From NCBI GenBank assembly GCA_963717525.1, contig OY970343.1:1248001-1312000 (forward strand): 64,000 nt of DNA, given 5' to 3'. This stretch comes from an uncultured Methanoregulaceae archaeon (GTDB lineage: Archaea > Halobacteriota > Methanomicrobia > Methanomicrobiales > Methanospirillaceae). Position 1 is the stretch's first letter. Each line of letters opens with the position of its first letter. Of this stretch, positions 25,843 through 58,143 are shown piece by piece. The notes under the pieces are model-generated. The model saw only the letters and a program-made list of their open reading frames with translations. It was not told the DNA's origin and ran no database searches. Made by a program: the position numbers and the translations under genes.

Positions 25843-25870
25843 TTTTCCTTGAATTCCTATTAAAGGAAAC
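25843..25870 (+). other. dif/Xer-like recombination site A (11-6-11)
   Basis: TTTTCCTTGAA-TTCCTA-TTAAAGGAAAC, arms 9/11 inverted. Confidence 0.5.
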
Positions 25871-26051
25871 GACGGAAACTCCAAAATTTTAGAGACTGCT
25901 ATACCGGTGAGATGGCGGAAAAATCCGGGTTGGATTCCCCAGAGAATAACGGTACCATACTGAAGATCTTGTACGGGACTTGTACTAGGCTTGAGGTAAA
26001 ACACGGGCTTCTTTCGATCAGGGGGTATTTATTAATTTCTTTGAATACACT

Positions 26052-26651
26052 CTATTTTTTCCCGAGACCATAATGGTCTCGTAAAAATTTTCTGACATTT
26101 TCCGACTCTAACTGCCCCTCATCGAGCTTGTCGAGAATTTTTTCGATTATTTTTACCTGTTCTGAGACAAGAGATTTTGTTTTTTCATCAACCATTGCGG
26201 TATCCAGCAGAATGGCCTGTAGGGGGTTTCTGATCTGGTCATTGAGGATCGCAAATTGTTCCAGGTTTTGTTCTATCTGCTGGAATGCGTTCATCTTTAA
26301 TTGTTCGACCTGTTTTTTGCGTATTATGGAACGTTCGGCATAATACGAGATCACAATTCCAAGAGAGACAAAGATGAAAAACCATGCGGTGTGAACTGCG
26401 ATCATTGCGGCAGAAAGCGTTCCGAACACGCATACCAGAACGAAGTAAACTCCGCCAAGGGTGATGGTAACCATTATCACACGTTGGGGAAGGGCATATG
26501 CCGCCAGGAGTACCGGGACAAGGAAAAAATAGGGGAATATATCATTGATGCCATGGGACAGGCTGAATACGGCAACCAGAATCGCAATGAGTGAAGTTAC
26601 GATGATGAGATATATCCAGATGATATTTTCGTGGATAAAATTACGGTGCAT
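26052..26651 (-). CDS. Membrane protein (4 TM) with Methanomicrobiales HisKA-like C-terminal tail
   Basis: Hydrophobic N-terminal half; QIEQNLEQFAILNDQIRNPLQAI. Confidence 0.75.
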   Translation of the reverse strand: MHRNFIHENIIWIYLIIVTSLIAILVAVFSLSHGINDIFPYFFLVPVLLAAYALPQRVIMVTITLGGVYFVLVCVFGTLSAAMIAVHTAWFFIFVSLGIVISYYAERSIIRKKQVEQLKMNAFQQIEQNLEQFAILNDQIRNPLQAILLDTAMVDEKTKSLVSEQVKIIEKILDKLDEGQLESENVRKFLRDHYGLGKK

Positions 26652-26707
26652 TTCACCCCCCTCCCATTAGTCCGTTCCAGAAGATACAGTCTTTACCGGG
26701 CATGAGA

Positions 26708-27439
26708 TCAGATCTTCGCAAAGGACATCGGAATGACTTTCATGCCATACCCCGGGTGGACTTCGAAACTCACAAGGTTTCCGGTAGTTTTTCGCGCACC
26801 ACGGACCTTGACCACTTCCATGACCATGACGTACTTGTCTCCGACAAGGGCCTTTTTCATGTTGAGATGGGCATCGCAGATGGACCGTATCCGGACAAGA
26901 GTATCTTCCTCAAAGGCATAGGTGTGGAGGGTAACGAGCACCGTTTTGCCGTTATCCACAAGGGATTTGCAGTTGGTAAAGAAGGTGAGGATGGAGGCCG
27001 ACTCTGCATATTCCGTAAAAAGCGTCATTGAATCAATAATTGCAACCTCAGCTTTGCTGTTCTGGATATAGGTGATCAGCTTTGCCAGAATGCCTTCCAT
27101 CTCCTCTTTTTTCCACTCAAAACCTACTACATGAAGGGGGAAGACCTTAACATATCCCCAAGCAAAATAATCCGAGATATCGAGGCTCATAGACTCCATC
27201 TGCTTGATAAAACTCTTGCTCGTGTTTTCCGTAGTGAAGAGATTTATCGAACGACTCTGTTTCAAGGCTCCCCAGATGATCTGCTGAGTGAGCACGCTCT
27301 TTCCGGTATCGTTTTCCCCTTCGATAAGGGTCAGAGACCCAAGTGGAATACCGTCGGCTATTTTCTTGTCAAGTTCGCCGTTACCGGTGGAGAGAATCTG
27401 TCGGTCCTCGCCTCCCATCAGGTCACTCATCATTGCCAT
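26708..27439 (-). CDS. flaH: Archaellum motor ATPase ArlH/FlaH (KaiC-like)
   Basis: STGNGELDKKIADGIP, GENDTGKS, IIDS, TLH.YAF, RIRSICDAH, VVKVRGA..TTGN..SFEV.PG.G. Confidence 0.9.
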   Translation of the reverse strand: MAMMSDLMGGEDRQILSTGNGELDKKIADGIPLGSLTLIEGENDTGKSVLTQQIIWGALKQSRSINLFTTENTSKSFIKQMESMSLDISDYFAWGYVKVFPLHVVGFEWKKEEMEGILAKLITYIQNSKAEVAIIDSMTLFTEYAESASILTFFTNCKSLVDNGKTVLVTLHTYAFEEDTLVRIRSICDAHLNMKKALVGDKYVMVMEVVKVRGARKTTGNLVSFEVHPGYGMKVIPMSFAKI

Positions 27440-27536
27440 GTAAATCTCCTGCCGGCAATTTCATACCGAGAGTTTTTCCGAATTCACCACATTCCTCCAT
27501 TGTGAAAATCACGATACCACACCAGAACCAAACAGG

Positions 27537-27827
27537 CTATTTTTTTATCAGGTGAGCTTCGGTATCGGTGATTTCGTAAATAAGATCCCTCTTCTCCTTT
27601 TTCAGCTGCTGGAGATCTTTTAAGATATCCTGTATCTGGAAATCCCGGTCCCTGATTGCGATTACATACGGCCTGTCCGGCTGATGATTTTCCGGGGTGA
27701 TAGCAAGAATTTCACTTGTATTACGCTGGTGGATTATCTTGAATTCAGTAATTTTTTCAAGATCGATACATACAAAATCCCCGCGATGGAATGGCCCTGA
27801 ATGGCCGAATTTTATGAATACACTCAT
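27537..27827 (-). CDS. Hypothetical protein
   Basis: 96-aa ORF with GGTGA RBS, lying between the arlD/E-like gene and arlH. Confidence 0.55.
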   Translation of the reverse strand: MSVFIKFGHSGPFHRGDFVCIDLEKITEFKIIHQRNTSEILAITPENHQPDRPYVIAIRDRDFQIQDILKDLQQLKKEKRDLIYEITDTEAHLIKK

Positions 27828-27896
27828 ATAACATCACCCGCTTGGGGCCCAGCGATCAAGAACTTAACGACAGTAAATTTCTCGGCAGACATAGGA

Positions 27897-28796
27897 TCAG
27901 ATCCTATAAGGGAGGATCATCTTTTCATCAACTTTTGGTTTATCAGGAGACGACTTGTTCATCTCGCTGAGTGAGAAATCGGAAAGATCACCATGTTTCC
28001 CAGTTTCCTTCTGGCGATGCACGGTAAGGACATCGATCATGTCGCGGTCAAGGGAAATATCGTTGGGCTTCAATATCCTGTTGAGGTTATACAGTGCTGA
28101 TACGAATTCGTCTGGACCTACTTCGTTTTCATCACCAAGATTTCCCGGCATCAAACGGGATATCCCCCGGATTTCATCAACGGATGCTTTGGATAGGTAC
28201 CCCATAGTCTGGTAGGATTCGAGCATAATTTCAAGCCGGTCGTGGCCGAATTTCCTGACCGTCTCGTGGGTCCATCTGAAAAGATGGTATACCTTATTGA
28301 GCTTGAGTTTTTCGTTTGTATGAAGATGTGACAGGGATCCCGACTTATGAGAATCGGCAATCTGGGATTTCAGCAGTGCAAACATCCTGTCGTCAAGGAT
28401 ATTTTCATCTTCGTTAACCGATGGAGTTTCAGGTTCATGCTGTTTTTTCGGGGATTCGTTTCGGGTTTCTGCATCCAATTTTGCTTTTGTCGCATCCATC
28501 TGCGATTCCTTGTCGTCAAGAGCAGCTTCCCGCGCCTTCAACGCAGATTGTTGGGCTTCCCTGATATCCTCGTCCAGGGCCGACACTCCATCCGGGGTAA
28601 CACGGTCACTACCGAAACTGGCTAGGGTATGCGGATTTTCGATCTCGTTCACCCGTTCCCGGATATCCATCAGAAGCCGCTTGATGGATGTTTTGATGAG
28701 GTCAACTTCTTGCTCTAGGTTCTTGAGCTTGGCATCGGGATCGTCTCCGATTGTTCCCGCAAGGATATGGTCAACCTGTTCTTGATCTATCGCCAC
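27897..28796 (-). CDS. ArlD/E (FlaD/E)-like archaellum accessory protein
   Basis: N-terminal LEQEVDLIKTSIKRLLMDIRE..NE.ENP coil; C-terminal W....V.KFG...LE..LE.Y..MGY.S motif. Confidence 0.7.
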   Translation of the reverse strand: MAIDQEQVDHILAGTIGDDPDAKLKNLEQEVDLIKTSIKRLLMDIRERVNEIENPHTLASFGSDRVTPDGVSALDEDIREAQQSALKAREAALDDKESQMDATKAKLDAETRNESPKKQHEPETPSVNEDENILDDRMFALLKSQIADSHKSGSLSHLHTNEKLKLNKVYHLFRWTHETVRKFGHDRLEIMLESYQTMGYLSKASVDEIRGISRLMPGNLGDENEVGPDEFVSALYNLNRILKPNDISLDRDMIDVLTVHRQKETGKHGDLSDFSLSEMNKSSPDKPKVDEKMILPYRI

Positions 28797-28961
28797 AATA
28801 CAATCCCCGTATTTAAATCGCTTAGTAGTTTTTTTTGTTAATAAATCTATCTATTTTGAAATAACGATTTATAGTTAGATTTAATGCTATTATCACACGA
28901 ATAGAAGGTTTTTCCGAAATTTTCATCGATTTGTCAGAACAAAGGCTAAGCTTTCCATTCT

Positions 28962-28994
28962 AGCTCTGTCAAGTCTTGGGCAGCTTGGCTTTCC
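28962..28994. repeat. Half copy of the 80-bp IS6-like element
   Basis: AGCTCTGTCAAGTCTTGGGCAGCTTGG closely matches the reverse complement of the right arms at 38719 and 42101. Confidence 0.6.
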
Positions 28995-29161
28995 ATGCAC
29001 ACAAAATTGCCGCAGCCATTGGCCTGCCGCCTGATGTAGTATATCCCCCTGCTTGCCCGGACATTTGTAGCAAACTTGCGAGTACGAGACCGGAAAAGCC
29101 TCATGTCAGATTCTTCCTTATGGGGAAAGTCAAGAAATGGATAGATCAGAAAGGTAAAAGG

Positions 29162-29241
29162 GGCTCTGTTAACTTGGTGAGTGATCGAATATTTTATCAG
29201 GCGTTGCAAATTTGATAATCCCCTAACAAGTTAACAGAGCC
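29162..29241. repeat. 80-bp IS6-like hairpin element
   Basis: GGCTCTGTTAACTTG ... CAAGTTAACAGAGCC perfect 15-bp IR. Confidence 0.8.
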
Positions 29242-29294
29242 CTCAATTGCGTTTTTTTTATTAGCAGAATATCACTCATATGCCATTACTATAA

Positions 29295-29375
29295 GGTTCC
29301 GTCAAGTTAGCGAGATACAGAACCTTTCTCAAATGTCTGTGAAAATTTAGAAGTTCTTGACAACATAACAGAACC
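29295..29375. repeat. 81-bp IS6-like hairpin element
   Basis: GGTTCCGTCAAGTT ... AACATAACAGAACC, 11/14 IR. Confidence 0.65.
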
Positions 29376-29394
29376 TCACCGGCCGCAAACGGAT

Positions 29395-30480
29395 CTAAGA
29401 TGCGTTGCGGGAGAGCGAGAACCGGTTCTGGTCGGAAATATCCCGTATAGATTCAATTGCTCCGATAACATTCCCTTTCGTATCATAAAGCGGGGATGCG
29501 ATGAACCAGATATAAGCACCTTTCCCGTCATAGAGTGTCGGTACAAATAATTCTGAGATCAGTTTATCGTCCTTCTTTTCGACATGGGAATAATATTTTT
29601 TCTTGTCCTCTTCATTACCGAGGACGAAATCGACCAGAATTGGCCGGCGTTTTCCATAGATAGGAACCGAGTATGCGTAATCCCCGATCCCGAGAATTTC
29701 CTCCCGTTTTATTCCGGACATATCCTCTATCGCCTTGTTCCAGACAATGACTTTTCCTTCGCGGTCGATAGCAACGGTTGGATCCGGAAGGAAATCGATG
29801 ATATTCGCCAGCCGTTGTTCAGACTGCTTTAATGCCTTTTCCACCTGTTTGTGCTCCAGGATTTTATTCTGGAGCTTCGTATTATTCTTGATACATTTAG
29901 TGATCTGTCCTTTCACCAGTTCAAGTTCATTCTGGCATTTTTTCATTTTTGTAATATCATCCATGATGATAACAACAGCCTGATCGCCATTCCCAAAAAC
30001 AAGCGGAACAATCTTTGTCGTAAAATTCCGGTCATCTCCGGAGACTTCGAAACAATCCTCAAATGCAAGAGTTGTTCCTTCGGTAGCTTTCTGCAAAGCA
30101 TCGAAATGGTCATGAGTGAAATATGAGGCGAGAACCGAATGCTCGATCTTCTGATTTTTCAACACTTCTTGGGTCAGCTGGAAATAATTAAGAAACGCAT
30201 TATTCGCATCCTGGATGAAGAGCTCTTTATCGAGTATAATGATCAGGTCTGACGATAGGTTTAACAGGTTGGCCAGGGGAAGCCTTTTAGTATGATAAAA
30301 AAGTTTTGCGTTACCGAGTGCTCGCATTTCGGCTCGGCCGGAGCTAACCAATGAATTGAGATATTTCGCCGTAGTCGACCGGTTCAGGGAAATCTTTTTG
30401 GATAATTCGTTAATTGTGAGTCCTTTCGGGTTGTTTTTCAGGAAGTCTTCAATCCGTTCGATTTCGAATTCCTTATCCAT
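29395..30480 (-). CDS. Winged-HTH + two PAS domain regulator
   Basis: PKGLTINELSKKISLNRSTTAKYL HTH; PAS motifs (DANNAF; WNKAIEDMSG...GAIESIRDI). Confidence 0.85.
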   Translation of the reverse strand: MDKEFEIERIEDFLKNNPKGLTINELSKKISLNRSTTAKYLNSLVSSGRAEMRALGNAKLFYHTKRLPLANLLNLSSDLIIILDKELFIQDANNAFLNYFQLTQEVLKNQKIEHSVLASYFTHDHFDALQKATEGTTLAFEDCFEVSGDDRNFTTKIVPLVFGNGDQAVVIIMDDITKMKKCQNELELVKGQITKCIKNNTKLQNKILEHKQVEKALKQSEQRLANIIDFLPDPTVAIDREGKVIVWNKAIEDMSGIKREEILGIGDYAYSVPIYGKRRPILVDFVLGNEEDKKKYYSHVEKKDDKLISELFVPTLYDGKGAYIWFIASPLYDTKGNVIGAIESIRDISDQNRFSLSRNAS

Positions 30481-30755
30481 CTTTCTCCCACCTTTCAATA
30501 GGTTAGTTGAACAATCACATATATAATGATTTTATATAATTATGTACCTTCAATGCTAGACAAGAGAGATAAACAATATAAGAAAGGTATAAATATAAAA
30601 AAAAGGAAGAGATTAAATATTATAAAATGCCGTCGGATAGCAAATGCGTGGTTACGAAGGTGAATGCATCTGTTCTGGAAACCAAAAAACTACCGGGCTT
30701 TGCCATATCGATGGAGGGGACTCCCCAAAAATCACGAAAACAATGATTGGAGATA

Positions 30756-31351
30756 ATGATGTCAGACGGGAATGAAAAAGGACTGGATGGATTGAAACTA
30801 CTGGATACAACCGCAAATCCAGCGCCCCTCGGGCTGCTGGGATTCGGCATGACAACAGTACTCCTGAACATGCACAATGCCGGGTTCTTTGCGCTCGGTT
30901 CGATGATCCTTGCGATGGGTATCTTCTATGGAGGACTCGCCCAAATCGTCGCGGGGATCATGGAGTGGAAGAAAAACAACACGTTCGGCGCAACTGCATT
31001 CTTTTCGTACGGATGCTTCTGGCTGAGCCTCGTAGCTCTTATCATTTTGCCCGCACTCGGTATCGCACAACCGGTGGACCCGGCTTCAATGGCGGCCTAC
31101 CTGCTTATGTGGGGATTTTTCACTGCGGTGATGTTTGCTGGAACGCTGAAACTGACCGGGCACTCCAGTTCGTTTTCGGGTCCCTTACGATTCTTTTCTT
31201 TCTGCTAGCCCTTGGCGAGATGACCGGTATCGGACTGATCACGACAGTGGCAGGCATTGAAGGAATCATCTGCGGACTTTCTGCGATGTATGCGGGTCTC
31301 GGACAGGTGCTCAACGAATTATACAAAGAACCGGTTGTCAGACTGGGGTAA
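30756..31351 (+). CDS. satP: Acetate uptake transporter, SatP/GPR1/FUN34/YaaH family (frameshift ~31158)
   Basis: Signature [32 protein letters not shown]. Confidence 0.9.
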
Positions 31352-31356
31352 ATAAA

Positions 31357-32838
31357 ATGCTCGAATTAGAGGATTACACAGGAATATTCGAGAAAAGCCC
31401 GGTTGCACAGGTCGTCATTGACCGGGACCTCCGGATTCTTGTGGTGAACGAAGCGTTCTGCACGCTGATGGGATACAGCAGGGAAAGGCTCACCGGGATG
31501 ACATTCACGGATTTCAAGACAAAAAGCCTGATCAAATACCTGAAAGATACCGGGGATTCGTGCGTCACGGTACTAACAACGAAGCGCCCCCTTAAATTCG
31601 AATCAAAGTTCGAAACTTCATCTGGTGTCCACTCTCTCCTTCAATCCTGCCAGCCGTTCCTCGATGAGAAGGGCGATGTGAAATACATCTACAACATGTA
31701 TACTGATATCTCGAAGATCGAGAAAAACCGGGATTACTTGAGCCGTGAGATTGAAGAATTTATAAAAGTATACGACCAGATGGCAGCTGGCGATCTCACC
31801 GCCAGCCACCCGGTTGAAACTCCGGAAGATCCCGACCTCCAGGATACGTTTAACTTCCTCACAAAACTGAGAACCTCGGTCCGCGGAATTATCGCAAATC
31901 TCCAGGTGAATATCAGGGATGTCAACAATCGGATGCTGAATCTTACGACCTCTACTGAAACCACATCCCACAGTGTCAGCGATGCAGTGAAGGGCGTCCA
32001 GGTGATCGCTCAGGACGCAAGCAAAGTCAGCAGCAATGCGGAGAAAGCATCGCAAGGTGTCGACCAGATTGCAAAAGCCATGCAGGACATGAGCGCAGCA
32101 GTCGAGGAAATTACGTCGAGCATGGAATCGGTCTCGACTCTCACCAAGCAGACCAACGACCTCTCCCAATCCGGCGCGGCGCTCGCAGGCAAGGCGGAAA
32201 AGGGCATGGCTGAGATCGCTGCTCACACAGGAAAGGTGCATGAGATCGTCTCTGACGTGGAGAAGCAGATGGGCGAGATCTCCAAGATCGTCGTGCTTAT
32301 CCGCGAACTGGCCAATCAGACAAACCTGCTGGCGCTCAATGCAGCCATTGAAGCAGCTCGTGCCGGGGATGCAGGACGAGGCTTTGCCGTCGTCGCGACA
32401 GAAGTGAAATCGTTGGCACAGGAGTCCCGGAACTCTGCCGAGCGGATCGAGGAAATGATCGCTTCCCTGAAAAAGCGCACGCAAAATGCATCCGCCGCTA
32501 TGAACGAAGCGAAGGGGATTGTCGAGCAGGGTTCAAAGATGGTGACCGAGACAATGCAGTCCTTCAACAAGATCGCAGCGGCCGTTGAGAAGGTAGCCGC
32601 GAGCGCGACAGAGGTTGCGGCGGCAACCGAAGAACAGGCAGCAACCACACAAGAGATCACGGCAAGTGTCAGTGAAGTTGCAAGCTTGGTGGAGCAGACC
32701 GCAAAAGATGCTGGTGATGCAGCGGCAGCAACAGAAGAATCCTCAGCTGCGTTGGATGAGATCACCCGTATGGTAGAAACCGTAAATAAAGTCGCTGTCG
32801 AGGCAATGGAAGCAAACAAGAAATTCAGGGTGGATTAA
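31357..32838 (+). CDS. Soluble PAS-domain methyl-accepting chemotaxis protein
   Basis: N-terminal PAS, no [36 protein letters not shown]. Confidence 0.95.
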
Positions 32839-32853
32839 GGAGGGTCGTGTCCA

Positions 32854-33393
32854 ATGGCGGCGAAAGCAATCGAGCCACGAGATACTCAGGCCCAAAACGC
32901 GGAAGATGAGGTCAGGAAACGACAGGGCAGCATCCAGATCGTTGAGTTCATCCTGGGCAAAGAACGCTTTGCCATCGATCTGTTCGATGTCAAGGAAGTC
33001 GTGGAATACACCACGATCACCAAACTTCCCAACGTGCCGGCGTATATAAAGGGGATTATCGATCTCCGTGGAGAGATAACGACTATTATCGATCTCAAGC
33101 ACCGGCTTAACATCACGGATGGCAGCCAGATTGCAGCCGAATCATCCCGGATTATTGTGCTCGACAACAAGATTACCGGTACCAAAATAGGGATCCTTGT
33201 CGATGATGTGACGTCTGTCTCGACCTTTGAAGGAAAGCAGGTGGACTATACCTCTGCATCGGTGAGCAAAGAGGATACAGCGATCATTGGCATCATCAAA
33301 CGAAAGGTGAAGGTCAAGGAGAAGGAGAAAAACGAACTCATCATCTGGATCGATATCAAGCAGCTGCTGGAGGGTATTGATACATCGGCTTGA
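32854..33393 (+). CDS. cheW: Chemotaxis adaptor CheW
   Basis: IVEF.LG.E.FAIDL.DVKEVV, PN.PAYIKGIIDLRGEI, IGILVDDV. Confidence 0.95.
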   Translation: MAAKAIEPRDTQAQNAEDEVRKRQGSIQIVEFILGKERFAIDLFDVKEVVEYTTITKLPNVPAYIKGIIDLRGEITTIIDLKHRLNITDGSQIAAESSRIIVLDNKITGTKIGILVDDVTSVSTFEGKQVDYTSASVSKEDTAIIGIIKRKVKVKEKEKNELIIWIDIKQLLEGIDTSA

Positions 33394-33519
33394 GAGTATA
33401 ATCGACCGGCTTTGTAGTTTGGTTCGGATGTGTCAGAGAAAGTACCTTGGAAAAGATTGAGGGGGGATATCCTCCATTTTACATTCTGGAAGAGTTGGGC
33501 CCTTAAACGTGGTTTGTTT

Positions 33520-33960
33520 ATGATTTCCGTACTCTATGTCGATGACTGGTCGCCGTTGCTGCATATCATCTCCCGTTTTCTGATGGAGAAAGGGGATATT
33601 ATAGTCGAAACATCACTCTCACCCGAAGAGGCGTGCCGAAAAATGGACTTCTTCTCCTTTGATGTCATCATCACTGATTATAATTCCAAGGACTCGGCCG
33701 GTATCGGTCTTCTTCAACAAACCCGGCAGAAAGGAAAAATGACGCCCTTTGTTTTCTTTACCTTAGAGCAAAACCGTGTAATGGAACAAGAAGCCGCACG
33801 GTATGGCCATGTGGCATTTGTGCGAAAAATACAGAACTCCGATTCGAGCTTTGACGAGCTTGAGAAAAAAATCCGGACAACAATTCCGGCACCTCATTCA
33901 GGAAATATAATTCCAAAAAAGGATCCGATCTATCCGATAAGTGGAGAACCATCATCATGA
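33520..33960 (+). CDS. Stand-alone response-regulator receiver
   Basis: VLYVDD, FDVIITD, PFVFFT, K. Confidence 0.8.
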   Translation: MISVLYVDDWSPLLHIISRFLMEKGDIIVETSLSPEEACRKMDFFSFDVIITDYNSKDSAGIGLLQQTRQKGKMTPFVFFTLEQNRVMEQEAARYGHVAFVRKIQNSDSSFDELEKKIRTTIPAPHSGNIIPKKDPIYPISGEPSS

Positions 33961-35621
33961 TACCTGTTCTTTATGTTGATGATGAATCAGCCCTGCTCGA
34001 CATAACGAAGCATTATCTGGAGCGCAGCGGAGAGTTCAGAGTAGATACTGCGACCTCTGCCAACGAGGCGATCAGCAAACTCATGGAGCAGGAGCGGTTG
34101 TACGAAGCAATCATCTCCGATTTCCAGATGCCGGAGATGAATGGCATCGAATTTTTAAAGAAAATCAGGACTACCGGAAATACCATTCCTTTTATTATTT
34201 TTACGGGAAAAGGGCGGGAAGAAGTTGTCATCCAGGCATTAAATGAAGGCGCCGACTCGTACATCCAGAAAGGCGGTGAGCCCAAGGCGCAATTTGCCGA
34301 ACTCGCACACAAGATCCGGCAGTCCGTCCAACAGAGAAGGGCGGAAATCAATATCAGGGATCTTGAACGGAGAGAGGGGGACATCATCAACTTCCTGCCG
34401 GATGCAACCTTTGCTATCGACACCCATGGGATTGTGATCGCATGGAACCATGCGATGGTGAAGATGACTGGTATCAGGGCAGCTGAAATTCTTGGGAAAG
34501 GCGACTATGAATATGCACTGCCCTTTTACCATGAGCGCCGTCCCATCCTGATCGATCTCGTACTCCGTGATGACCCTGCAACCACTGTAAAATATGGGAA
34601 TGTCACTAGGAACACAGGGAACCTCATTGCAGAGGTCACTATCCCCCACTTCAATAACGGGGAGGGGGCCTTGCTCTGGTTCGTTGCCTCCCCCCTCTAT
34701 GATACCCGGGGCACCACCGTCGGTGCAATTGAATCGATCCGGGATATCACCGAACGTAAAAAGGCGGAAGAATCCTTAAAAAGTAGCGAGGAACGGTACC
34801 GCACGCTCCTGCAGCGTTCGTTCGATGCGGTCGTGGTTCACCGTAACGGCATCATTACCCTCGCAAACCAGATTGCTGCCACTCTTCTGGGTGTATCGTC
34901 ACCATCAGAACTTGTCGGAAAAAAAGTTCTTGATTTTGTCCATCCCGCATACCGGAATACCGTCACGGAGCGGATAGGAGCGATGACCACCGGTAACGTA
35001 ATGACCGCAGTTGATACTATCGAAGAGAAATTTCTGCGGACCGACGGAGGGGTTATTGATGTCGAAGTAGTCGCCACAGGTTTTTTTGATAAAGGCCAAC
35101 CCTCGATCCTAGTGGTATTCCGGGATATCACCCGGCGCAAGGGATTGATGGAAGCGCTTAAGGAGAGCGAGGAGCGATACAGGAACGTTGTCGAGACCCA
35201 GACCGAGTTTATCTGTCGGTTCAGGCCAGACGGCACCCATATCTTTGTCAACGAGGCATACTGTCGGTATTTCAATAAGACACGGGATGAGATGATCGGG
35301 AATAAGTTCATCCCCAGGATCCCGGAGGAAGAAAAAGCCGGCGTAAAGGAACATTTTGTCTCCCTGACCCGGGAAAATCCTGTTTTGGCGATTGATCACC
35401 GCATCATCATGCCCGACGGCAAGATGCGATGGCAGCGGTGGAACGATCGGGCAATTTTCGATGATAAAGGGATCCTTGTTGAATATCAGTCAGTTGGCCG
35501 GGATATAACCGATGTCAAGGAAGCGGAAGAGGCACTGAGGTTCAAGCATGAGGAACTGATCAGTGCTTATGAGAAATTGACCGCAATGGAAAAAGAACTG
35601 GCTCTACAGAGCCCAAAATGA
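33957..35621 (+). CDS. REC + three PAS domain signalling protein
   Basis: VLYVDDE, ISDFQMP.MNG, IIFTG.GREE, YIQKGG; three PAS/PAC repeats ending RDIT. Confidence 0.9.
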   Translation: MIPVLYVDDESALLDITKHYLERSGEFRVDTATSANEAISKLMEQERLYEAIISDFQMPEMNGIEFLKKIRTTGNTIPFIIFTGKGREEVVIQALNEGADSYIQKGGEPKAQFAELAHKIRQSVQQRRAEINIRDLERREGDIINFLPDATFAIDTHGIVIAWNHAMVKMTGIRAAEILGKGDYEYALPFYHERRPILIDLVLRDDPATTVKYGNVTRNTGNLIAEVTIPHFNNGEGALLWFVASPLYDTRGTTVGAIESIRDITERKKAEESLKSSEERYRTLLQRSFDAVVVHRNGIITLANQIAATLLGVSSPSELVGKKVLDFVHPAYRNTVTERIGAMTTGNVMTAVDTIEEKFLRTDGGVIDVEVVATGFFDKGQPSILVVFRDITRRKGLMEALKESEERYRNVVETQTEFICRFRPDGTHIFVNEAYCRYFNKTRDEMIGNKFIPRIPEEEKAGVKEHFVSLTRENPVLAIDHRIIMPDGKMRWQRWNDRAIFDDKGILVEYQSVGRDITDVKEAEEALRFKHEELISAYEKLTAMEKELALQSPK

Positions 35622-35647
35622 AACAACCGGAATAACCAGGTGGTGCG

Positions 35648-47699: not shown

Positions 47700-47720
47700 A
47701 TCGATACTTATATATCAAAT

Positions 47721-48488: not shown

Positions 48489-48616
48489 GGATAATGTCGA
48501 CGTCTCTCTTCGGGCAGGTCATGTGCGGAGGAGATCGCCCGGAGACGGGTGGGGCATGCGCCCCCTCTTGAATTTCAATAAGGAACAGGTAATCTTGCAC
48601 GTACTTATAAGGTGAT

Positions 48617-49396: not shown

Positions 49397-49436
49397 TCTT
49401 GCAAAACCGGGGATTATTCCGGGGAGGAACTTTTTT

Positions 49437-49910
49437 TCATTTCATAAGTTCGGTGATAATCGTCGTATCCTCCAGTTCCATCGCATGCATCACATTGGCA
49501 ACAATCTTTCTCGTAAGTTCTTTCAGTACCAGACTCTCAATTTCGGTGAATCCAGAGATGAGGATCGAGTTCCATTCCTGAGATAACTGAGTGATAGCGG
49601 GTTCGATCTCCCTCCCTTTTGGTGTCAGGAAGATCCGGTTCGCCCGGCCATCCGTTTTATCCTGAATGCGGGATACATATCCTTCCCGCTCAAGTTTGTC
49701 CATTGCACGGGCAATCGTTGCTTTGTTAAAAAGAAGCCTCTTTGCAATTGTCTCCTGGTTCAATCCATCTTCACGGTAGAGCAGCTTCAGAAATGGGAAC
49801 TGTCCGTAGCTCAGATTGTACGGTTTGAGCCGTTGCGAGTAAAAAGCAGACTGGGCCCGCAACAGATAGGAAACGACTCCTCCGAGATGGTAATCCTGCA
49901 TACGATACAC
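49437..49910 (-). CDS. MarR family transcriptional regulator
   Basis: LSYGQF..L..L...DG..Q..IA......KATIARA..KLE..GYV.R..D..DGR...I.LT.KG. Confidence 0.92.
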   Translation of the reverse strand: MYRMQDYHLGGVVSYLLRAQSAFYSQRLKPYNLSYGQFPFLKLLYREDGLNQETIAKRLLFNKATIARAMDKLEREGYVSRIQDKTDGRANRIFLTPKGREIEPAITQLSQEWNSILISGFTEIESLVLKELTRKIVANVMHAMELEDTTIITELMK

Positions 49911-49988
49911 CTTGATCTCTTCAAAACCATAAACCCTGCTGTGTAAAATGTTTCATCAATCGAAACTCAGGGGAGTCTTAATATACCA

Positions 49989-50006
49989 TAGTTGAGTATG
50001 CAACTG
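49989..50006. promoter_or_regulatory. Putative MarR operator upstream of marR
   Basis: TAGTTG-AGTATG-CAACTG, next to a minus-strand TATAAA at 50007-12. Confidence 0.55.
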
Positions 50007-50178
50007 TTTATACCATAACTTAAGGAAATAGGATAGGATAATTGAGCGGTCGGTGACCGATATTTCACCGCATTAAAAATTCCTTGCCCCGTTAATTTAT
50101 CACAACCAGCAATTCACACACCCGACAGGGGCACATACCTTAGATTGAGAGAAAACAAGAAGAATGGAGGAAAAATCA

Positions 50179-51632
50179 ATGCCAGAAGTCTGTATAGGAT
50201 TTGAAGTGCACCAGCCATACCGGCTGAACCGGCACTTTTCGCCTAATCCAAAGAAGAAGAATAAAGATCAGTATGACTATATTTCGATGAGTTGAATCGG
50301 GAAGTGCTGGAACGGGTATCTGAAAAGTGTTACGTGCCGGCCACGAAGATCATTCTGGAAAAACTGGACGAAGGGTTTCATTGTTCATTTTCCTTTTCCG
50401 GGACGCTTATCGAGCAGCTGGAGAAGTGGCAACCGGATGTCCTGGCTCTCTTTGACCAGGTTGCCCGTCACCGGAATTCCGAGTTGCTCGGGCAGACTTA
50501 CTACCACAGCATTGCCGGCTGCTTTGGTGACAAATCGGAATTTATCGAGCAAGCTGGGATGCATACCGACCTGATGTATGACCTTTTCAAGATCCGACCC
50601 ACAGTCTTTGAAAATACCGAGTTCACGTTCAATAACCAGATCGCCAGTTGTGTAAAAGATATGGGCTATGCTGGCATATTCACCGAGGGTGTGGAACGGA
50701 TACTCGACTGGCGCAGCCCGCACCATATCTACACCTGTAATGATTTGCCCGTTCTGCTCCGCGATTTTCAGCTTTCCGATGATATCGCGTTCCGGTTTGG
50801 CAACCAGGGCTGGAACAAGTACCCGCTGACTGCGGATACCTATGCTGACTGGATTCGCGGCACATCCGGGGATCTCGTCAATCTCTTTCTGGATTATGAG
50901 ACTTTCGGGGAACACTTCTGGAAAGAGACCGGGATCCTTAATTTCCTCTCCTACCTTCCCACAGAGCTGGAGAAACGGGGAATCCGGACTACCCTGCCCA
51001 CGGAAGCACTGGAGAGTTACCCTCCGGTTGGTACGATCGATGTCAAGGATACCATCTCTTGGGCTGATATCGAGAAGGACGCGTCCGCATGGATGGGCAA
51101 CGAGCGGCAGCACACGGCATACTCCGCGATCCAGAAAGCGGCGGCCTTTGCAAAGGACAAAGAAATCTGGCGGTATCTCCAGACAAGCGACCATTTCTAT
51201 TATATGGCCTCCAAGTACGGGACCTCTGGCGAAGTACACAACTACTTCAGCCATCACGAAGCCGAGGATGCGTTCCGGACGTACATGGCGATCCTTGCCG
51301 ATTTTGAGGAACGTAACATACGGGCGGCGAAGAACAAAAAATCGGCAAAGACCCTCCGGACACTGACACCGGAAGAGGCGTTTCACTTTGCATCTCCCTC
51401 CGGCCATGTCGGGTATGCAGCATACAGTCTCGACCAGTTCTGTGACCTGCTCCGGGTGGTACCCGCCGACTCGATAACGTACCACCAGGAACGGGGGGAT
51501 ATCGCCCACTGGATTGAACATACGCTTTTCGACCAGAAACTGGCCGCGGACGTTACCGGCCTCATGGACCGTCAGGAACTGATCACCCTGATCGATGAGC
51601 GGAGGCAACTGTTATGGAGTCGATTACAGTAG
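50179..51632 (+). CDS. GH57 alpha-amylase-like glycoside hydrolase with C-terminal DUF5752-like domain (frameshift ~50283)
   Basis: FEVHQPYR, QTYYHS, ENTE, LSDDIAFRF, DYETFGEH, LQTSDHFYYM. Confidence 0.92.
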
Positions 51633-51651
51633 CGTTCTTCTGCGAGAGATC

Positions 51652-52467
51652 ATGATCATACAGCACAGCAGTTCCGGCCCGATAACAGGATATCCCGGCC
51701 CTGTCCACTGGGAAGGTCCCCTGCCCGTACCTGATATACGGGATGTGAGGGAGCTGGCGGGCGCTCTTGCTGTGCCGGGTTGTTCCGTTAACGGGCCTGT
51801 TTATTACATGTACCGGGATGTGGCCCGTTCACCCGAAGACCGCCAGTGGCTTCATGAGCGGAAGATCCGCTTCGATATCACCGTCATCCCGCCACGGGAT
51901 CTTTGTGGGGAGTGTGTGAAGACCAAAGGGCACTATCACCCGGCAAATCCCACCGGTACCGGTTACCCGGAGATCTATGAGGTGCTGGAGGGCGAGGCGC
52001 ACTACCTGATCCAGACCCGGGACTGTGCGGATGTGGTGATGATCGCCGCCACTGCTGGGGAGATCGTTGTGGTGCCCCCGGGATACGGCCACGTCACGAT
52101 CAATCCTTCCCGCACGGCCGTTCTCCAGATGGCAAACCTTGTCTCGTCTGCATTCCAAAGCGAGTTCCAGGCCTACGAGGATCTCCGCGGAGCGGTCTTT
52201 TACGAGATGACAACAGGGGCGTTTGTAAAAAATCTGCGTTACCCACAAAAATCCCGGTTGAGGCTCGTTAAAGCCGGCCACATTGCCGGCGTGAAAGATA
52301 CGGTCAGCGACCCCCTCTATGATCTTGTGGAAAAGCGGGCGGCGATCCTTGGCTTTCTCAACTACCCTGAAGAATACCAGGCACTCTTTTCCAGGATCTA
52401 CCCGGAAGGTACGATGGCATCCTCCGGTGATTACAACCTGAACCGGGTGAACATACATGCTGATTAA
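51652..52467 (+). CDS. pgiA: Cupin-type glucose-6-phosphate isomerase (start uncertain)
   Basis: YYMYRD, RFDITVIPP, KTKGHYH, YPEIYEVL.G, VPPGYGHVTIN. Confidence 0.8.
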   Translation: MIIQHSSSGPITGYPGPVHWEGPLPVPDIRDVRELAGALAVPGCSVNGPVYYMYRDVARSPEDRQWLHERKIRFDITVIPPRDLCGECVKTKGHYHPANPTGTGYPEIYEVLEGEAHYLIQTRDCADVVMIAATAGEIVVVPPGYGHVTINPSRTAVLQMANLVSSAFQSEFQAYEDLRGAVFYEMTTGAFVKNLRYPQKSRLRLVKAGHIAGVKDTVSDPLYDLVEKRAAILGFLNYPEEYQALFSRIYPEGTMASSGDYNLNRVNIHAD

Positions 52468-53926
52468 AACGACACGCAGCCTTTGCCCGACCTGCTACTC
52501 CGTCATTGATGCGAAAATTGTCGAAGAAGATGATACTATCTGGCTCGATCGGACTTGTCCGTCACACGGGAATTTTCGGCACTTGTACTGGTCGGATGCC
52601 CGTATGTATCACCGGTTCGACAAGTACGATGCAGTAGGAAACGGGATCGCCAATCCCCAGAACCCCGGTGCGCCAGCCAACAGTTGTCCGACAGCCTGCG
52701 GTTTGTGCAACAACCACCATTCCCAGACGCTTCTTGCAAATATCGATCTGACCAATCGCTGCAACCTCGACTGCGACTTCTGCTTTGCCAATGCCCGGGC
52801 CTGCGGTTTTGTCTACGAGCCCGAATTTGATGATGTCGTTCGGATGCTACAGGTACTGCGGGACGAGAAGCCTGTCCCGGCTCCTGCGGTACAATTCTCC
52901 GGTGGTGAACCCACGATGAGGGAGGACCTGCCGGATATTATCCGGAAGGCTAAGGCGATGGGGTTCCCCCAGGTGCAGATCGCAACAAATGGTGTCAAAC
53001 TGGCAAAAAAGCCGAATTTTGCCCGCGAACTCAAGGATGCCGGCCTCGATACGGTCTACCTCCATTTTGATGGGGTGACCACTGAGACGAATCCCTTCCT
53101 TGCTACCCACAAAAAGACGCTTGAGAACCTCAGGAAAGCCGGGCTCGGAACTGTGCTTGTGCCGACGGTTATCCGGGGACGGAATGATCATCAGCTGGGG
53201 GATATCATCCGGTTTGCCATTGAGAATATCGCTTTCGTGCGAGGGGTGAACTTCCAGCCGATCGCATTTACCGGCGCTGCCAGCGATGAAGACCTCCAGA
53301 ATGCCAGGATCACTATTCCCGATGTCCTCGCCCGGGTCGAGAGCCAGATGGACGGGATTCTCAAAAAGGACGACTTCTACCCGGTCCCGTGCGTCCTTCC
53401 ATTCTCGGATCTCGTGGAGGCCTATACGGGCAGGCCGCAGGTAAGATTTACCGCCCACCAGCACTGCGGGGCAGCAACGTATGTTTTCGTGCAGAAAGAG
53501 GGGGTGGTCCCGATCACCCGCATGGTCGATGTGGAGAGTTTCTTTGAATCGATAGAGTACATGGCCGGGACCCTCCGGAAAGGCGGCACCATAAACAAGT
53601 ACAAGGCGCTTCTCGCAGGGGTCAAAGGCCTGCACAGTTCCGTGAAGAAAGGGGAGCAGGGCAATACCGCGGAGTTCTGGAAGCTGATTGGCAAGACCCT
53701 GATAGGCCAGAATTTCGACGCGCTCCGGGAGTTCCACTGGAACGCACTTTTCATAGGAGTCATGCACTTTATGGACAGGTACAATTACGATATCGAGCGG
53801 GTCCAGCGCTGCTGCATCCATTACGCAACCCCTGACGGGAAACTGATCCCCTTCTGCACCTATAACAGTGGCCCGGTATACCGGGAGCAGGTCTGGAAGA
53901 AGTTTGCTAGGAAGCCGGATACGTAA
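52457..53926 (+). CDS. tes: Radical SAM tetraether lipid synthase (Tes/GDGT-MAS, MJ0619 family)
   Basis: N-terminal CPTC..CPSHG, CP.ACGLC..H, TNRCNLDCDFC, QFSGGEPT, HCG, RCCIHY..PDG..IPFC.YN. Confidence 0.88.
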   Translation: MLIKTTRSLCPTCYSVIDAKIVEEDDTIWLDRTCPSHGNFRHLYWSDARMYHRFDKYDAVGNGIANPQNPGAPANSCPTACGLCNNHHSQTLLANIDLTNRCNLDCDFCFANARACGFVYEPEFDDVVRMLQVLRDEKPVPAPAVQFSGGEPTMREDLPDIIRKAKAMGFPQVQIATNGVKLAKKPNFARELKDAGLDTVYLHFDGVTTETNPFLATHKKTLENLRKAGLGTVLVPTVIRGRNDHQLGDIIRFAIENIAFVRGVNFQPIAFTGAASDEDLQNARITIPDVLARVESQMDGILKKDDFYPVPCVLPFSDLVEAYTGRPQVRFTAHQHCGAATYVFVQKEGVVPITRMVDVESFFESIEYMAGTLRKGGTINKYKALLAGVKGLHSSVKKGEQGNTAEFWKLIGKTLIGQNFDALREFHWNALFIGVMHFMDRYNYDIERVQRCCIHYATPDGKLIPFCTYNSGPVYREQVWKKFARKPDT

Positions 53927-54081
53927 GATTATGATTGCCGTTCTCGATGTTAATGATAAATTGATTTCTGTGGCGTTAACAGGACTTAATGAATACTTAA
54001 TATCGTCGTAACTCATCAATGTTGACAATATAATTGTCTCGAAGTCGCACCAGAACCTGTCACATGATTTCGGGATGGGAT

Positions 54082-54160
54082 GGTGCTGTTGCGTTTAAGG
54101 TTGGTGACAAATAGTTTACCTCGTTAAAATATTCAAATCAACCGCCAGTGCAACAGCACC
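54082..54160. repeat. 79-bp IS6-like hairpin element
   Basis: GGTGCTGTTGC ... GCAACAGCACC perfect 11-bp IR. Confidence 0.75.
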
Positions 54161-54235
54161 CATGTAACGAACCAAAACTGTATATATCCTCTTGGGCGAT
54201 TACCAACTATCGAATGTCGATGGAGTGAATGAGAT

Positions 54236-56198
54236 ATGGCACAAGAAGAACCAAAGCCGGTGCTGGTCCGGGAACGGCTTGATGTCTGCGAGCTGGACCG
54301 GGCCCGGATGTCCCTGATGAACCCTGCACTCATTGAGCAGAAGAAACAGGAGCGTACGATCGACGAGAATGCAAAGCCCCTCCTCGAGATGGCGATGAAA
54401 GAGGGCCTCGAGACAGTCTGGGACCGGCACGAGATGCAGCAGCCACCCTGTAAGTACTGCGAGGCGGGGACCTCCTGCATGAGATGTACGATGGGGCCGT
54501 GCCGGATTATCCCGCCCCACCGCATCCGCGGCGTCTGCGGAGCTGATGTCGACCTTATCGTCGCCCGCAACCTGCTTGACACGATCGCGACCGGTTCGGC
54601 GGCCCATTCCGATCACGGCCGTGACATCGTCGAGACGCTGTATCTCGTAGGGATGGGAAAGGCCAAAGACTACGGCATCGCCGATCCGGACAAACTGCGT
54701 GTGCTCGCAAAAGAGTACGGCATCGAACTCGAAAGCAAAAGCAATGAGAAACTTGCCGCCGAACTCGGCCGCGCCATGCTCGAAGAGTACGGCATGGTGA
54801 AAAACACCCTCCAACTTCTCAACCGGGCTCCGAAAGCGACCCGGGAGATCTGGGACAAACTCGGGATCTCCCCGAGGGGGATCGACCGCGAGGTGGTGGA
54901 TTGTATGCACCGGATCCAGATGGGAGTCGGTGCGGATTATGTCAACATCCTGCTGCAGGGCCTGCGCTGCAGCCTCTCGGACGGCTGGGGAGGGTCGATG
55001 CTTGGCACCGATGTCTCGGATGTCCTCTTCGGGACGCCGACCATTAAGGAATCGAAGGTGAACCTTGCGGTACTTAAGGCTGACCACGTCAACATTGCTG
55101 TCCACGGCCACAACCCGGTCCTCTCCGAGATGGTGGTAAAAGCAGTCTCTGATCCCGAACTCGTGGCGCTTGCAAAGAAGAACGGCGCAAAAGGCATCAA
55201 CCTGGTCGGGCTCTGCTGCACGGGCAGTGAGCTTCTGATGAGAAAGGGCATCCCGATGTCCGGCAACCACTTCAACCAGGAACTGGTCATCATGACCGGG
55301 GCGCTCGAGGCGATGATCGTTGATTACCAGTGCATCTTCCCCTCGCTGCCGAGGACCGCCAGCTGCTTCCACACACTGATCATCTCGACCAGTGCCAAGG
55401 CAAAAATACCGGGATCGTACTACTTCGATTTCAGCGCGGACAAGGGTCTTGTGACCGCAAAGGCAATCGTCAGGATGGCTGTCGAGAACTTCAAGAACCG
55501 CAACCACATGCGGGTGTTGATCCCGGGTAAGCCAGTTCCACTCATGTCAGGATTCTCTAACGAAGCAATCAAAAAGGCGCTGGGTGGGTCATTCAAACCC
55601 CTTATCGATGTCATCGCTGCCGGTAAGATCAGAGGTGCAGTCGGTATTGTCGGGTGCAACAACCCGCACGTGAAACATGACTATGGCCATGTGACCCTGT
55701 CAAAGGCACTGATTAAAAAGAACATCCTCTGTGTCGAGACCGGGTGTGCAGCGATCGCCTCGGGAAAGGCCGGGCTTCTCATGCCGTCTGCCGCCGCCCT
55801 TGCGGGCGACGATCTGCGGGCAGTCTGCGAATCGTTAAAGATCCCGCCCGTGCTCCACATGGGTTCCTGCGTGGACAACTCCCGTATCCTCGTGCTCGCG
55901 GCCGAACTGGGCAATGCGCTCAACGTCCCGATCCACAAGCTGCCCATCGCCGGCGCAGCACCGGAATGGTCACTCGCAGAAGGCGGTCTCGATCGGCACC
56001 TACTTCGTTGCGTCGGGCGTTTATACCGTGCTCGGCGTGATGCCGCATATCTCCGGCAGCCCGGCCGTGGTCTCGCTCCTGACCGACGGCCTCAAGGGTG
56101 CGGTGAACGCAAACTTTGCCGTTGAGCCCGACCCGGTCAAGGCGGCCATGCTGATCGAGAACCATATCGAAAAGAAGCGTGTCGAGCTCGGGATATGA
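54236..56198 (+). CDS. cooS: Anaerobic Ni,Fe carbon-monoxide dehydrogenase catalytic subunit (frameshift ~55970)
   Basis: C..C.MGPCR...GVCGA, HSDHG, VHGHNP, LCCTG.E, DYQC, VGCNN, TGC, MGSCVDNSR, APEW. Confidence 0.95.
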
Positions 56199-57081
56199 GC
56201 AGATATGGAGAGCCACGCGGTGCACCGGTAGCCGGCAACGGCAATTTTTTCTCTGAAGGCAAGAATGGAATACGGATCGTAATTACTGGGAAAGGCGGGG
56301 TCGGCAAGACCACCATCACCGCCCTTCTCGCCCACCTGTTTGCACAGCAAGGGTTCCGTGTGCTTGCCATAGACGGCGATCCCCAGCAGAATCTCGCGGT
56401 TACCTTGGGCATCCCGCCACCGGTGGCAGAGCTAATTGTCCCGGTCTCCAAAAGTGTGGAGTACCTGCGCGAAAAGACCGGCGCGGCCCGGACATCTCCC
56501 CGGGCGGGCTTCTTACCCTCAATCCGGATGTGAGTGACGTGGTTGACCGGTTCTCCATTCCTGTGGTGGATAACCTGCGGCTCCTTGTCATGGGAGGGAT
56601 CAGGCAGGCCGGTTCTGGCTGCCTCTGCCCCGAGTATACTCTTCTTACCGCAATCCTCCGGCATATGCATACCCTCAAAGACGAAGTGATTCTTCTGGAT
56701 ACTCCGGCGGGTCTTGAGCATTTTGGCAGAGCGGTCGCGGACGGGTTTTCCTGCGCAGTTATAATGGCAGATCCTACCTATAATGCCCTTTCTGTAGCAC
56801 GGGAATCTGCTGCGCTGGCGCGACAACTGGGAATCGGGCATATCATTCTTGTCGTGAATCGTGTTGGCAAACCGGAGGAACGAGACAAAGCACGTGAACG
56901 GGCAGGACGTCTCGACGAATTCTCCCGGGTGATGCTGCTTTCCTTTGATCCTGGCGTAATCGCTGCGGAACCTGAAATATGCCCACTCCTTTCGACCGAA
57001 TCGGATTTCATGCGTGAAATCAAATCCTTGGTAGTAACCATTACCCATCCTTCCGAAGTCCGCTCGCCAGATTTCTCGTGA
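56195..57081 (+). CDS. cooC: CODH nickel-insertion ATPase CooC (frameshift ~56495)
   Basis: GKGGVGKT, IDGDP, GSGCLCPE, DTPAGLEHFGR; ATGA overlap with cooS. Confidence 0.9.
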
Positions 57082-57094
57082 GGGTACCACCTCA

Positions 57095-57161
57095 GGTTCT
57101 GTTGCGTTGGCGATTGATCGGTATTATGCCGAGGTGAAAAACCGATTGCAGACCCGGAACC
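57095..57161. repeat. Shortened IS6-like element
   Basis: GGTTCTGTTGCGTT left end (13/14 to 54082), degenerate right end CCGGAACC. Confidence 0.5.
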
Positions 57162-57259
57162 CTGATTTCCCCCAATCGTGGAATGGCTGGCCAACATGTG
57201 GTATGCACTATCGTACCTATACAAACCTATAATTCCCCTTTCTCCTCTTAAACTCCCGT

Positions 57260-57865
57260 ATGCTAAAGATAATCGGGATTCTAGGGAGCCCGCTTCCTGA
57301 CGGCAATACAGCTCTGTTGCTCGATAAGGCCCTTGAGGGAGCAAAGGCAGCTGGTTGTGAAGTCGAGCTTATCGATGTAATTACTCTAGATATCCAGAGC
57401 TGTCAGGAGATTTATTATTGCAAGGATCATAACACCTGCATCTTAAATGATGATATGATCCCGATCTATCCGAAGGTTGCGGCACTGGACAGCCTGATCC
57501 TCGCCACACCTATCATGACAATGGGTATCCCGGGGCATCTCAAGTCGTTCATCGACCGGTTCCAGGTCTTTTATATGGCCAAATACTTCCGGAACGAGCC
57601 GCTTGTCTCTCCGGATCTGAAAAAGAGAAGAAAGAGCCTCTTCATCAGCATTTCCGGGATGGATATCCCCGGGGTGTTCAATGGAGCAAAACAGACGATA
57701 AAGGCGTTTTTTGACATTATTGATAGCCCCTACCATGACGAACTCCTCATCAGCGGTATGGATCAGATCAAAGACATAACGACGCGGCCGGATCTCCTCA
57801 ATAATGCTTATGCGAAGGGATTTGCCCTTGGGGCGTCGTTAATGGAATCGAGGCAGCCCGACTAA
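57260..57865 (+). CDS. Flavodoxin-family / Isf-like NADPH-dependent FMN reductase
   Basis: GILGSP...GNT..LL..AL.GA, CQE...C...C, ATP, LKSFIDR. Confidence 0.88.
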   Translation: MLKIIGILGSPLPDGNTALLLDKALEGAKAAGCEVELIDVITLDIQSCQEIYYCKDHNTCILNDDMIPIYPKVAALDSLILATPIMTMGIPGHLKSFIDRFQVFYMAKYFRNEPLVSPDLKKRRKSLFISISGMDIPGVFNGAKQTIKAFFDIIDSPYHDELLISGMDQIKDITTRPDLLNNAYAKGFALGASLMESRQPD

Positions 57866-57872
57866 TCCGCCA

Positions 57873-58023
57873 TTGTTACGAGGGTCCCATCATATTCCTC
57901 ACTGCATATCTAAATAAAGAAAAAATTGATGAGGCAAAGAGTATTTCACCCTCTGACTTTCTTAACAAGCCGTATCTGGAACATGATCTCCTTGCGGTAG
58001 TTGAGAAAGCATTTTTCAGGTAG
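57873..58023 (+). pseudogene. C-terminal fragment of a receiver domain
   Basis: Manual translation ..GPIIFLTAYLNKEKIDEAKSISPSDFLNKPYLEHDLL..; no start. Confidence 0.6.
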
Positions 58024-58115
58024 TTCTTCATTATGGCAATATTCTATCGATTCCTCCCCGGTTTTCTCACTACGATTTTCCGGAACCGAAAAACCTTGAA
58101 TTTTGTATTTTACAT

Positions 58116-58143
58116 CGTTCCTTTAATAGCAATTAAATGAAAC
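58116..58143 (-). other. dif/Xer-like recombination site C (inverted relative to A and B)
   Basis: Reverse complement GTTTCATTTAA-TTGCTA-TTAAAGGAACG. Confidence 0.5.

Follow-up and report, generated by a model that had tools for sequence, protein, structure and literature searches.

The window analysed is a stretch of 64,000 nucleotides (G000:C1:1248001-1312000) of a Methanoregula genome (G000; 2.29 Mb, a single contig, 87% complete). It contains most of an integrative element of 41,391 bp, which runs from position 23502 to 892 bp past the window end and carries a tyrosine integrase gene, cargo genes and a series of 28-bp sites of the form 11-6-11, with two 11-bp arms around a 6-bp spacer. 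Three of these sites, A, B and C, are the main subject of this analysis. Positions are those of the window unless preceded by a genome (G) or locus (L) handle. The features were as follows.

23502 to 23510, plus strand: left attachment core, the 9-bp direct repeat TTTCAGAAA, placed from the empty-allele contigs of runs X12 and X6.
23574 to 24935, plus strand: tyrosine integrase (PF00589), 452 amino acids (aa) from short-read data.
25307 to 25771, plus strand: 154-aa open reading frame (ORF), ribbon-helix-helix (RHH)-like by a weak lead (atlas feature match 0.86, below the 0.9 bar).
25843 to 25870, plus strand: site A, 11-6-11 core, spacer TTCCTA; identity with the sister element stops in the right arm.
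25871 to 25952, plus strand: E-arm of A, with a TCC-A4T4-type palindrome and A-tracts.
26052 to 37463: cargo A-D, with ArlH/FlaH, PAS protein, MCP, CheW, receiver and kinase genes; 47% GC.
37566 to 37593, plus strand: site D, core only, spacer TGTAAA (second spacer class); weak partner at 37514-37541.
37641 to 41966: cargo D-B, an unknown ORF and a 1067-aa SIR2-NTPase with a ThsA-like N-terminus; 33% GC, candidate defence module.
42286 to 42468, plus strand: site B with two E-arms, spacer TCCCTA; core at 42370-42397.
42398 to 58115: cargo B-C, with M50 protease, TPR, TBP, flavoprotein, GH57, radical SAM, prismane and other genes; 52% GC.
57094 to 58142, minus strand: 1049-bp block, 97% identical to a block of island 2, starting inside C; its other end is off-site.
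58035 to 58143, minus strand: site C with its E-arm, spacer TTGCTA, inverted relative to A and B; core at 58116-58143, weak partner at 58153-58180.
58144 to 64000: cargo C-E, within the element; past the window follow site E at 64137 (spacer TACGAG) and a truncated SMC-like ATPase gene.
64884 to 64892, past the window (G000:C1:1312884-1312892): right attachment copy, the same 9-bp repeat.

A, B and C had been proposed as dif-like sites in a sequence-only reading of this DNA, and the positions and letters given there for all three were verified. A degenerate 25-mer matched A, B and C and nothing else in the window, and had no match in 100 dinucleotide shuffles. The similarity of the right flanks, also noted in that reading, was confirmed and was longer than claimed, at ~95 bp (the E-arm). 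The placement of the sites was likewise as described: A lay downstream of the integrase gene and the RHH-like ORF, B was preceded by the SIR2-NTPase gene in DNA of 33% GC, and C was located between a receiver remnant on one side and a HATPase remnant on the other (read by eye). The interval from A to B had been described as a 16.5-kb chemotaxis and defence block; it is not uninterrupted, as site D (25.9 bits) and the weak match at 37514 fall within it. Because D sits inside, the interval comprises at least two modules, one of signalling genes (47% GC) and one with the SIR2-NTPase gene (33% GC). Another weak family member was present at 58153, and site E was located just past the window end.

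A matrix built from the cores identified 10 strong copies genome-wide, with scores of 34-39 bits where block shuffles reached ~15. The strong copies form three clusters, each beside a divergent PF00589 integrase, and the E-arm, a conserved one-sided stretch, was present on all ten; at site B it was present on both sides, pointing outwards from the core. A symmetric matrix, with the consensus TTTTCCTTTWA-N6-TWAAAGGAAAA, gave no score above 18 bits in 10 shuffles, and the family comprises ~30 sites in the genome. The arms of the core are near-symmetric, which suggests a single recombinase. The spacers are conserved and asymmetric and belong mainly to three classes (TTSCTA, TTTRCA and TACGAG). 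Within the element, A and B have the same direction and C is inverted. On the outer flank of the distal sites, a tandem TCC-N4-GGA was seen in most of 23 hand-picked examples (including L002:1490-1524); a hairpin was considered for this repeat and rejected, as it is a tandem in which changes are not always compensatory. This repeat and the TCC-N8-GGA of the E-arm are candidates for binding by a single accessory protein. Outside the islands, a separate small family of repeats was observed (G000 441291, 1347019 and 2144967), in which the palindrome is similar and one flank is conserved.

Blocks duplicated between the islands were found to start or stop inside the cores. A 1721-bp thiC block (97% identical) did so at both ends, and a GNAT block, a flavoprotein block (at C) and a 2406-bp integrase block (at A) did so at one end. 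At four of these five ends, the inner arm was identical (11/11) and the spacer matched at 5-6/6, with 8-9/11 in the outer arm and 5-11/30 in the outer 30 bp. At the fifth, belonging to the GNAT block (90% identical), both arms matched at 9/11 and the ungapped inner flank at 12/30. Site A and its counterpart in the sister element, for instance, were identical through the left flank (30/30), left arm (11/11) and spacer (6/6), with 9/11 in the right arm and 11/30 in the right flank. The border of a TrmB block in two congeners (G120 and G105) was also at a site. The thiC, GNAT, flavoprotein, integrase and TrmB blocks are thus identical modules in different contexts bordered by sites, as are pdif (plasmid dif) modules. 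Over all site-bearing loci, 8 of 160 block ends fell in a site in both sequences (6 when two duplicate loci were left out, four of them in this genome) against ~0.7 expected (Poisson ~1e-4, with ends that are not independent); the sequence-only reading had proposed comparing matrix-defined sites with gene-content breakpoints, and the association was found. As the block ends lie inside the cores and 15 of the 31 sites with gene context (including A, C and D) are between convergent genes, with 8 in tandem and 8 in divergent settings, the sites are read as crossover sites rather than operators. That the 11-6-11 sites are recombination crossover sites is well supported by sequence, and we hold it to be very probable.

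Contigs from public sequencing runs were aligned to window positions 22900-42890 and to G000 1304001-1317000. In run X12, a 6281-bp contig (depth 38.7) matched up to window position 23510 and resumed at G000 1312884, representing an empty allele; the contig was matched across the two alignments by equal size, depth and loose-end letters. The island between the borders was mostly at depth 0-7 in this run. In run X6, the empty junction (from loose-end letters) and the filled allele were both present. Since the empty allele removes the whole 41.4 kb at a separate 9-bp repeat, A, B and C are internal to the element. The locus thus has the intact integrase, flanking direct repeat and empty allele of an integrative element. 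The empty allele may reflect either excision or a strain that never carried the element. An empty allele had been suggested as a check in the sequence-only reading, and one exists, but the DNA lost is the whole element at the 9-bp repeat and not the A-B interval. The parallel drawn there with integrative mobile elements exploiting Xer (IMEX) was not upheld, as the borders are this repeat and not dif-like sites at the host dif. A sister element of 34,366 bp, flanked by the repeat TTTCAAAAA, has the same ends. The two share 2406 bp on the left (99.2%) and 534 bp on the right (89%), with nothing above 80% between, and occupy unrelated chromosomal places.

A tRNA-Phe gene (19133-19208) was rejected as the anchor of this element, as the tRNA end did not occur a second time and the empty allele retains the DNA to the left of 23502. 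The element is inserted ~15 bp upstream of the start of a SngB/BrxD-like ATPase gene, which is followed by a SngC-like helicase gene (PADLOC; window 20016-23487), and parts these genes from an unknown ORF of 511 aa, which in the empty allele lies immediately before them. It may therefore split a defence operon; PADLOC gave no match for sngA past the right end. Past that end (G000 1312899-1320681; L010:4899-12681), a resolvase, a D5-like primase/helicase and a second kind of integrase were observed at 42% GC, and the element may lie within another, older integrated one. An additional copy of the right end (G000 510735-510816; L125, 500000-530000), with sites at 504507 and 525799 and no integrase match nearby, is possibly a non-autonomous fourth element. 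Island 1 is flanked by two inverted tRNA-Cys genes with cysteine-metabolism genes (L001:14625-14697 and L003:16252-16324); the genome has three tRNA-Cys genes.

The integrase gene of the assembly contains three frameshifts, and the sequence-only reading had assumed that it needed repair. This was unnecessary, as the three extra bases were missing from the contigs of 3, 4 and 4 of 4 runs, which also ruled out a pseudogene. These short-read contigs collapse both integrase copies at approximately double depth and end at 25868, inside A; the source sample may be among the best-covering runs. Between window positions 22900 and 42890, six indels were contradicted by short-read contigs, so that pseudogene calls in this assembly are unsafe. 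Many genes were split by single-base shifts, for example at 14024-16338 and 30747-31351, at L003:14966-16236 and in xerA (L145). The 452-aa integrase has all of its catalytic residues (R147, K180, H269, R272, H294 and Y302). It is not XerA (NF040815 ~51 bits for the sister copy, with a cut-off of 220). A search of solved structures returned only one weak XerC-like match (4a8e). The integrase's own attachment site is a T-tract/A-tract that is unlike the 11-6-11 cores. Most members of the integrase family have such a T-tract/A-tract 60-90 bp before the start codon (by eye), and the left end is of a single kind throughout the family, regardless of the presence of sites. Five further tyrosine recombinases were matched in the genome; one of them, of 206 aa (G000 1432117-1432737), has little beyond the catalytic domain.

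The distribution of the sites was determined with a sequence-only model of the core and E-arm. The model matched 31 of 107 congeners at E 0.001, and in 21 of these the match reached E 4.2e-9 or better, with a core that was weak or unmatched in G108, G114 and G125. There were no matches in 138 genomes of other genera of the order, and none to the site in viral contigs. A metagenome scan gave 18 loci, four of which have an integrase of the element's family. Matches to the site pattern in five unrelated taxa of the contig database are probably due to chance.

In the mechanism we propose, the integrase would move the whole element, and a simple tyrosine recombinase would act at the internal sites. 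Strand exchange would take place in the 6-bp spacer and would require near-matching spacers. A pair of Acinetobacter sites with one spacer-base difference did recombine (PMC11705084, in the part available). For modules whose spacers are unlike or inverted (thiC: TTCCTA...TGCAAA), transfer would proceed through two crossovers between co-resident elements and not through a circle; module exchange by two crossovers has been proposed for Acinetobacter plasmids, where deletion between flanking sites was not detected in the data given in the same part of that paper. A and B (TTCCTA/TCCCTA) could delete 16.5 kb, which is geometrically possible given their direct orientation, single spacer mismatch and inward E-arms, and A and C (inverted, one spacer mismatch) could invert 32 kb. 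The E-arm would be an accessory stretch of the cer/psi type and perhaps also a terminator.

We read A, B and C as internal joints of the element, likely tyrosine-recombinase crossover sites at which cargo is swapped between sister elements, probably by the host XerA, and assign this reading a probability of roughly 0.45. XerA is favoured by elimination, and the geometry is that of dif, an 11-6-11 form with inner TAA/TTA (PMC2958812, PMC8371274, in the parts available). The XerA gene encodes 307 aa (the copy in G000 is frameshifted in this assembly) and was the sole PF00589 match in site-bearing G114 and G124 (76% and 89% complete). Across 15 genomes, XerA identity was 82-98% and site-bearing genomes did not separate from the others, and this constancy fits a constant site. 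Of the modular gene capture by XerA or a local integrase that had been suggested from the sequence, the modular, pdif-like part fits, but the attachment site of the integrase differs and no matching dif was found. Several observations weigh against the XerA reading. The site pattern was present in 25 of 108 genomes of the genus, and 83 gave no core match at up to 2 mismatches, though XerA, a single gene, was above its cut-off in 74 of 108. No host chromosomal dif was found in palindrome lists for G000 and G020/G061 (150 of 537 matches in one list); of four candidates, one gave unlike matches only, and of the remaining three, two were absent from all 5 other genomes and one was found in a single genome, so that these were likewise rejected. 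The pdif sites of Acinetobacter resemble their dif, as stated in the available part of PMC6449649. The arrays start 0.9-4.5 kb from this integrase family in all three islands and in G104, G111, L200 and L204, which fits the integrase equally, and the site orientation lacks pdif-style alternation. Off-site block ends numbered 152 of 160, and six shared cargo or insertion-sequence blocks in this genome had no end at a site. Among the 29 sites above 17 bits, 26 lie within 143.5 kb of three integrase-bearing islands, an enrichment that is partly circular because the matrix was trained on island sites and the island bounds were drawn by the analyst. Among the joints listed for 6 runs, in contigs that drop rare forms, none was a recombinant one at A, B, C or D. 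The excision between A and B predicted earlier was not among the joints listed in the contigs of runs X1, X2, X6 and X12, and contigs crossed B unbranched in X1, X2 and X6. For the A-C inversion there was no loose end among those listed; A and C are in separate references, so that only loose ends could show it.

The proximity of the arrays to the integrase gene raises the alternative that this enzyme has two jobs, moving the element at its T/A-tract ends and, with the RHH-like protein on the E-arm, shuffling the cargo in an integron-like manner of separate origin. The whole would then be a Methanoregula-specific gene-shuffling platform unrelated to integrons, an independently evolved archaeal cassette system of elements that land at T/A-tract targets and whose internal 11-6-11 joints have accessory signals of their own; the integrase and its RHH-like partner would move the element and swap or invert multi-gene modules between sister copies. 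Both versions appear unlikely to us. The catalytic residues are intact, most genomes with XerA have no dif-like match, and in two elements here and in G104:C3 and G111:C2 the array directly follows the integrase and RHH-like genes, in the order integrase, RHH-like gene, first site, cargo and inverted distal site. The 154-aa ORF has homologues in 5 of 107 congeners, with its position between integrase and first site recurring, and at 28 relative integrase loci sites accompanied 5/5 with an RHH-like gene and 0/23 without it, a count that covers up to ~50 kb at the five loci and ~2-35 kb at the others (3/5 within ~18 kb). Island 2, however, has sites without an RHH homologue, and there was no site within 20 kb of a third RHH copy. 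Furthermore, the known attachment core differs from the sites, and the sites are constant beside integrases that are 29-44% identical. Co-occurrence at the genome level was not significant (10/21 vs 31/86, Fisher p 0.33), 11 of 21 site-bearing genomes having no member of the integrase family (E 1e-30). Relatives at 76-79% identity had no site in the DNA examined. The site-bearing integrases (9 of 29 rows) were scattered on a quick tree, of which the careful search was unfinished; their distribution took 6 changes, with at least 5 of these forced, and 37 of 500 shuffles gave as few. As neither XerA nor the integrase fits fully, a third recombinase encoded in trans might act on the sites, which we consider improbable. 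Five other recombinase matches are available in the genome, one of them of 206 aa, and many loci have sites far from any recombinase gene; against this, XerA alone is common to the 10 site-bearing genomes scanned with PF00589, and no recurring recombinase adjoins the sites.

The least probable reading, by a small step, is that the sites are binding or termination signals (operator, insulator or terminator) at gene ends, with the repeat seeding homologous or insertion-sequence-driven exchange. In most cases the gene flanking the E-arm is oriented towards the site, and its transcription would pass through T-tracts; 8 of the 31 sites lie between divergent genes, and IS6-like ends adjoin some borders, which they explain. 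The identity switch, however, falls within a 28-bp core, short for homologous recombination, and the spacers form conserved, asymmetric classes. A transcription-factor site at fixed promoter positions, the alternative named in the sequence-only reading, does not fit the 15 of 31 sites between convergent genes or a site-gene distance that ranges from overlap to more than 900 bp.

The cargo of the element includes a TATA-binding protein gene (45237-45815) and the archaellum gene for ArlH (26708-27439). The matrix scan scored no additional site within cargo B-C. For the SIR2 module, there was no match among 107 congeners, and neighbouring genes alone were matched. An SMC/Rad50-like ATPase gene beside distal sites begins at residue 143-146, directly after the site, and is a recurring half-gene with four copies in three genomes (L195, L193, L194 and L196); it was rejected as a universal partner of the sites, being present in just 4 of 108 genomes. 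IS6-like miniature ends cut the kinase remnant beside C (58720-58800), and at L204:6810-7930 such ends bracket a single gene beside three sites.

Shuffling of modules by pdif-type recombination has so far been regarded as a trait of Acinetobacter. A counterpart in archaea, if true, would offer wetland methanogens a concrete route for the exchange of genes for signalling, defence and cofactors. With XerA as the enzyme, this would be mobile DNA exploiting an archaeal Xer and a handle on dif specificity in methanogens; if the integrase is, it would be a dual-specificity recombinase. Spacer-defined exchange sites might also be of use in methanogen genetics. A literature search, with most subscription papers outside its coverage, gave no paper on such arrays in archaea.

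The element may be likened to Tn916-type tyrosine-integrase transposons in that its ends lie at T-tract/A-tract junctions and its two copies occupy unrelated chromosomal places. It differs from them in its exact 9-bp repeat at both ends, in an integrase without a related profile match, and in that no conjugation genes were recognised in the window's element. The comparisons that follow rest on the available parts of the cited papers. As in IMEX (PMC5357621), dif-like sites are present in mobile DNA; unlike IMEX, the element integrates by its own integrase at a 9-bp T/A-rich core and not at dif. Integrons, including archaeal ones (bioRxiv 10.1101/2022.02.06.479319), likewise have a tyrosine recombinase gene beside sites and variable genes. 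Neither island integrase, however, matched profile TIGR02249 for IntI-type integrases, and the modules here are 0.7-16 kb long, in both orientations and often with several genes. In the attC hairpin test, only a short core stem was common (z -1.3 to -3.7, with unlike folds) and there was no shared attC-like fold; in the Rfam scan a tRNA was the sole match. The plasmid sites cer and psi (PMC5357621) also combine a core with one-sided accessory DNA, which binds ArgR/ArcA and PepA, whereas the accessory arm here, which may likewise bind accessory proteins, is an unrelated ~95 bp and there are many sites per element. With archaeal XerA/dif (PMC2958812, PMC8371274) the sites share 11-bp inverted arms, a 6-bp spacer, inner TAA/TTA and a single host recombinase; dif, however, is single-copy, chromosomal and conserved across relatives, whereas ~30 copies are present here in mobile DNA and are missing from most congeners.

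The pdif/xrs sites of Acinetobacter, served by XerC/XerD (PMC11705084, PMC6449649), share more of these features: many 28-bp 11-6-11 sites in accessory DNA, sister replicons or elements that are alike except between sites, restriction to one genus, and flanking sites that are often inverted or of unlike spacer, which fits a two-step exchange. The present sites differ in being archaeal and inside chromosomal integrative elements, in the ~95-bp accessory arm on some of them, in near-symmetric arms instead of distinct XerC and XerD arms, in the lack of strict alternation and in one Xer-type gene per genome. On this comparison, the system is classed as pdif-like in its working and is not filed as pdif.

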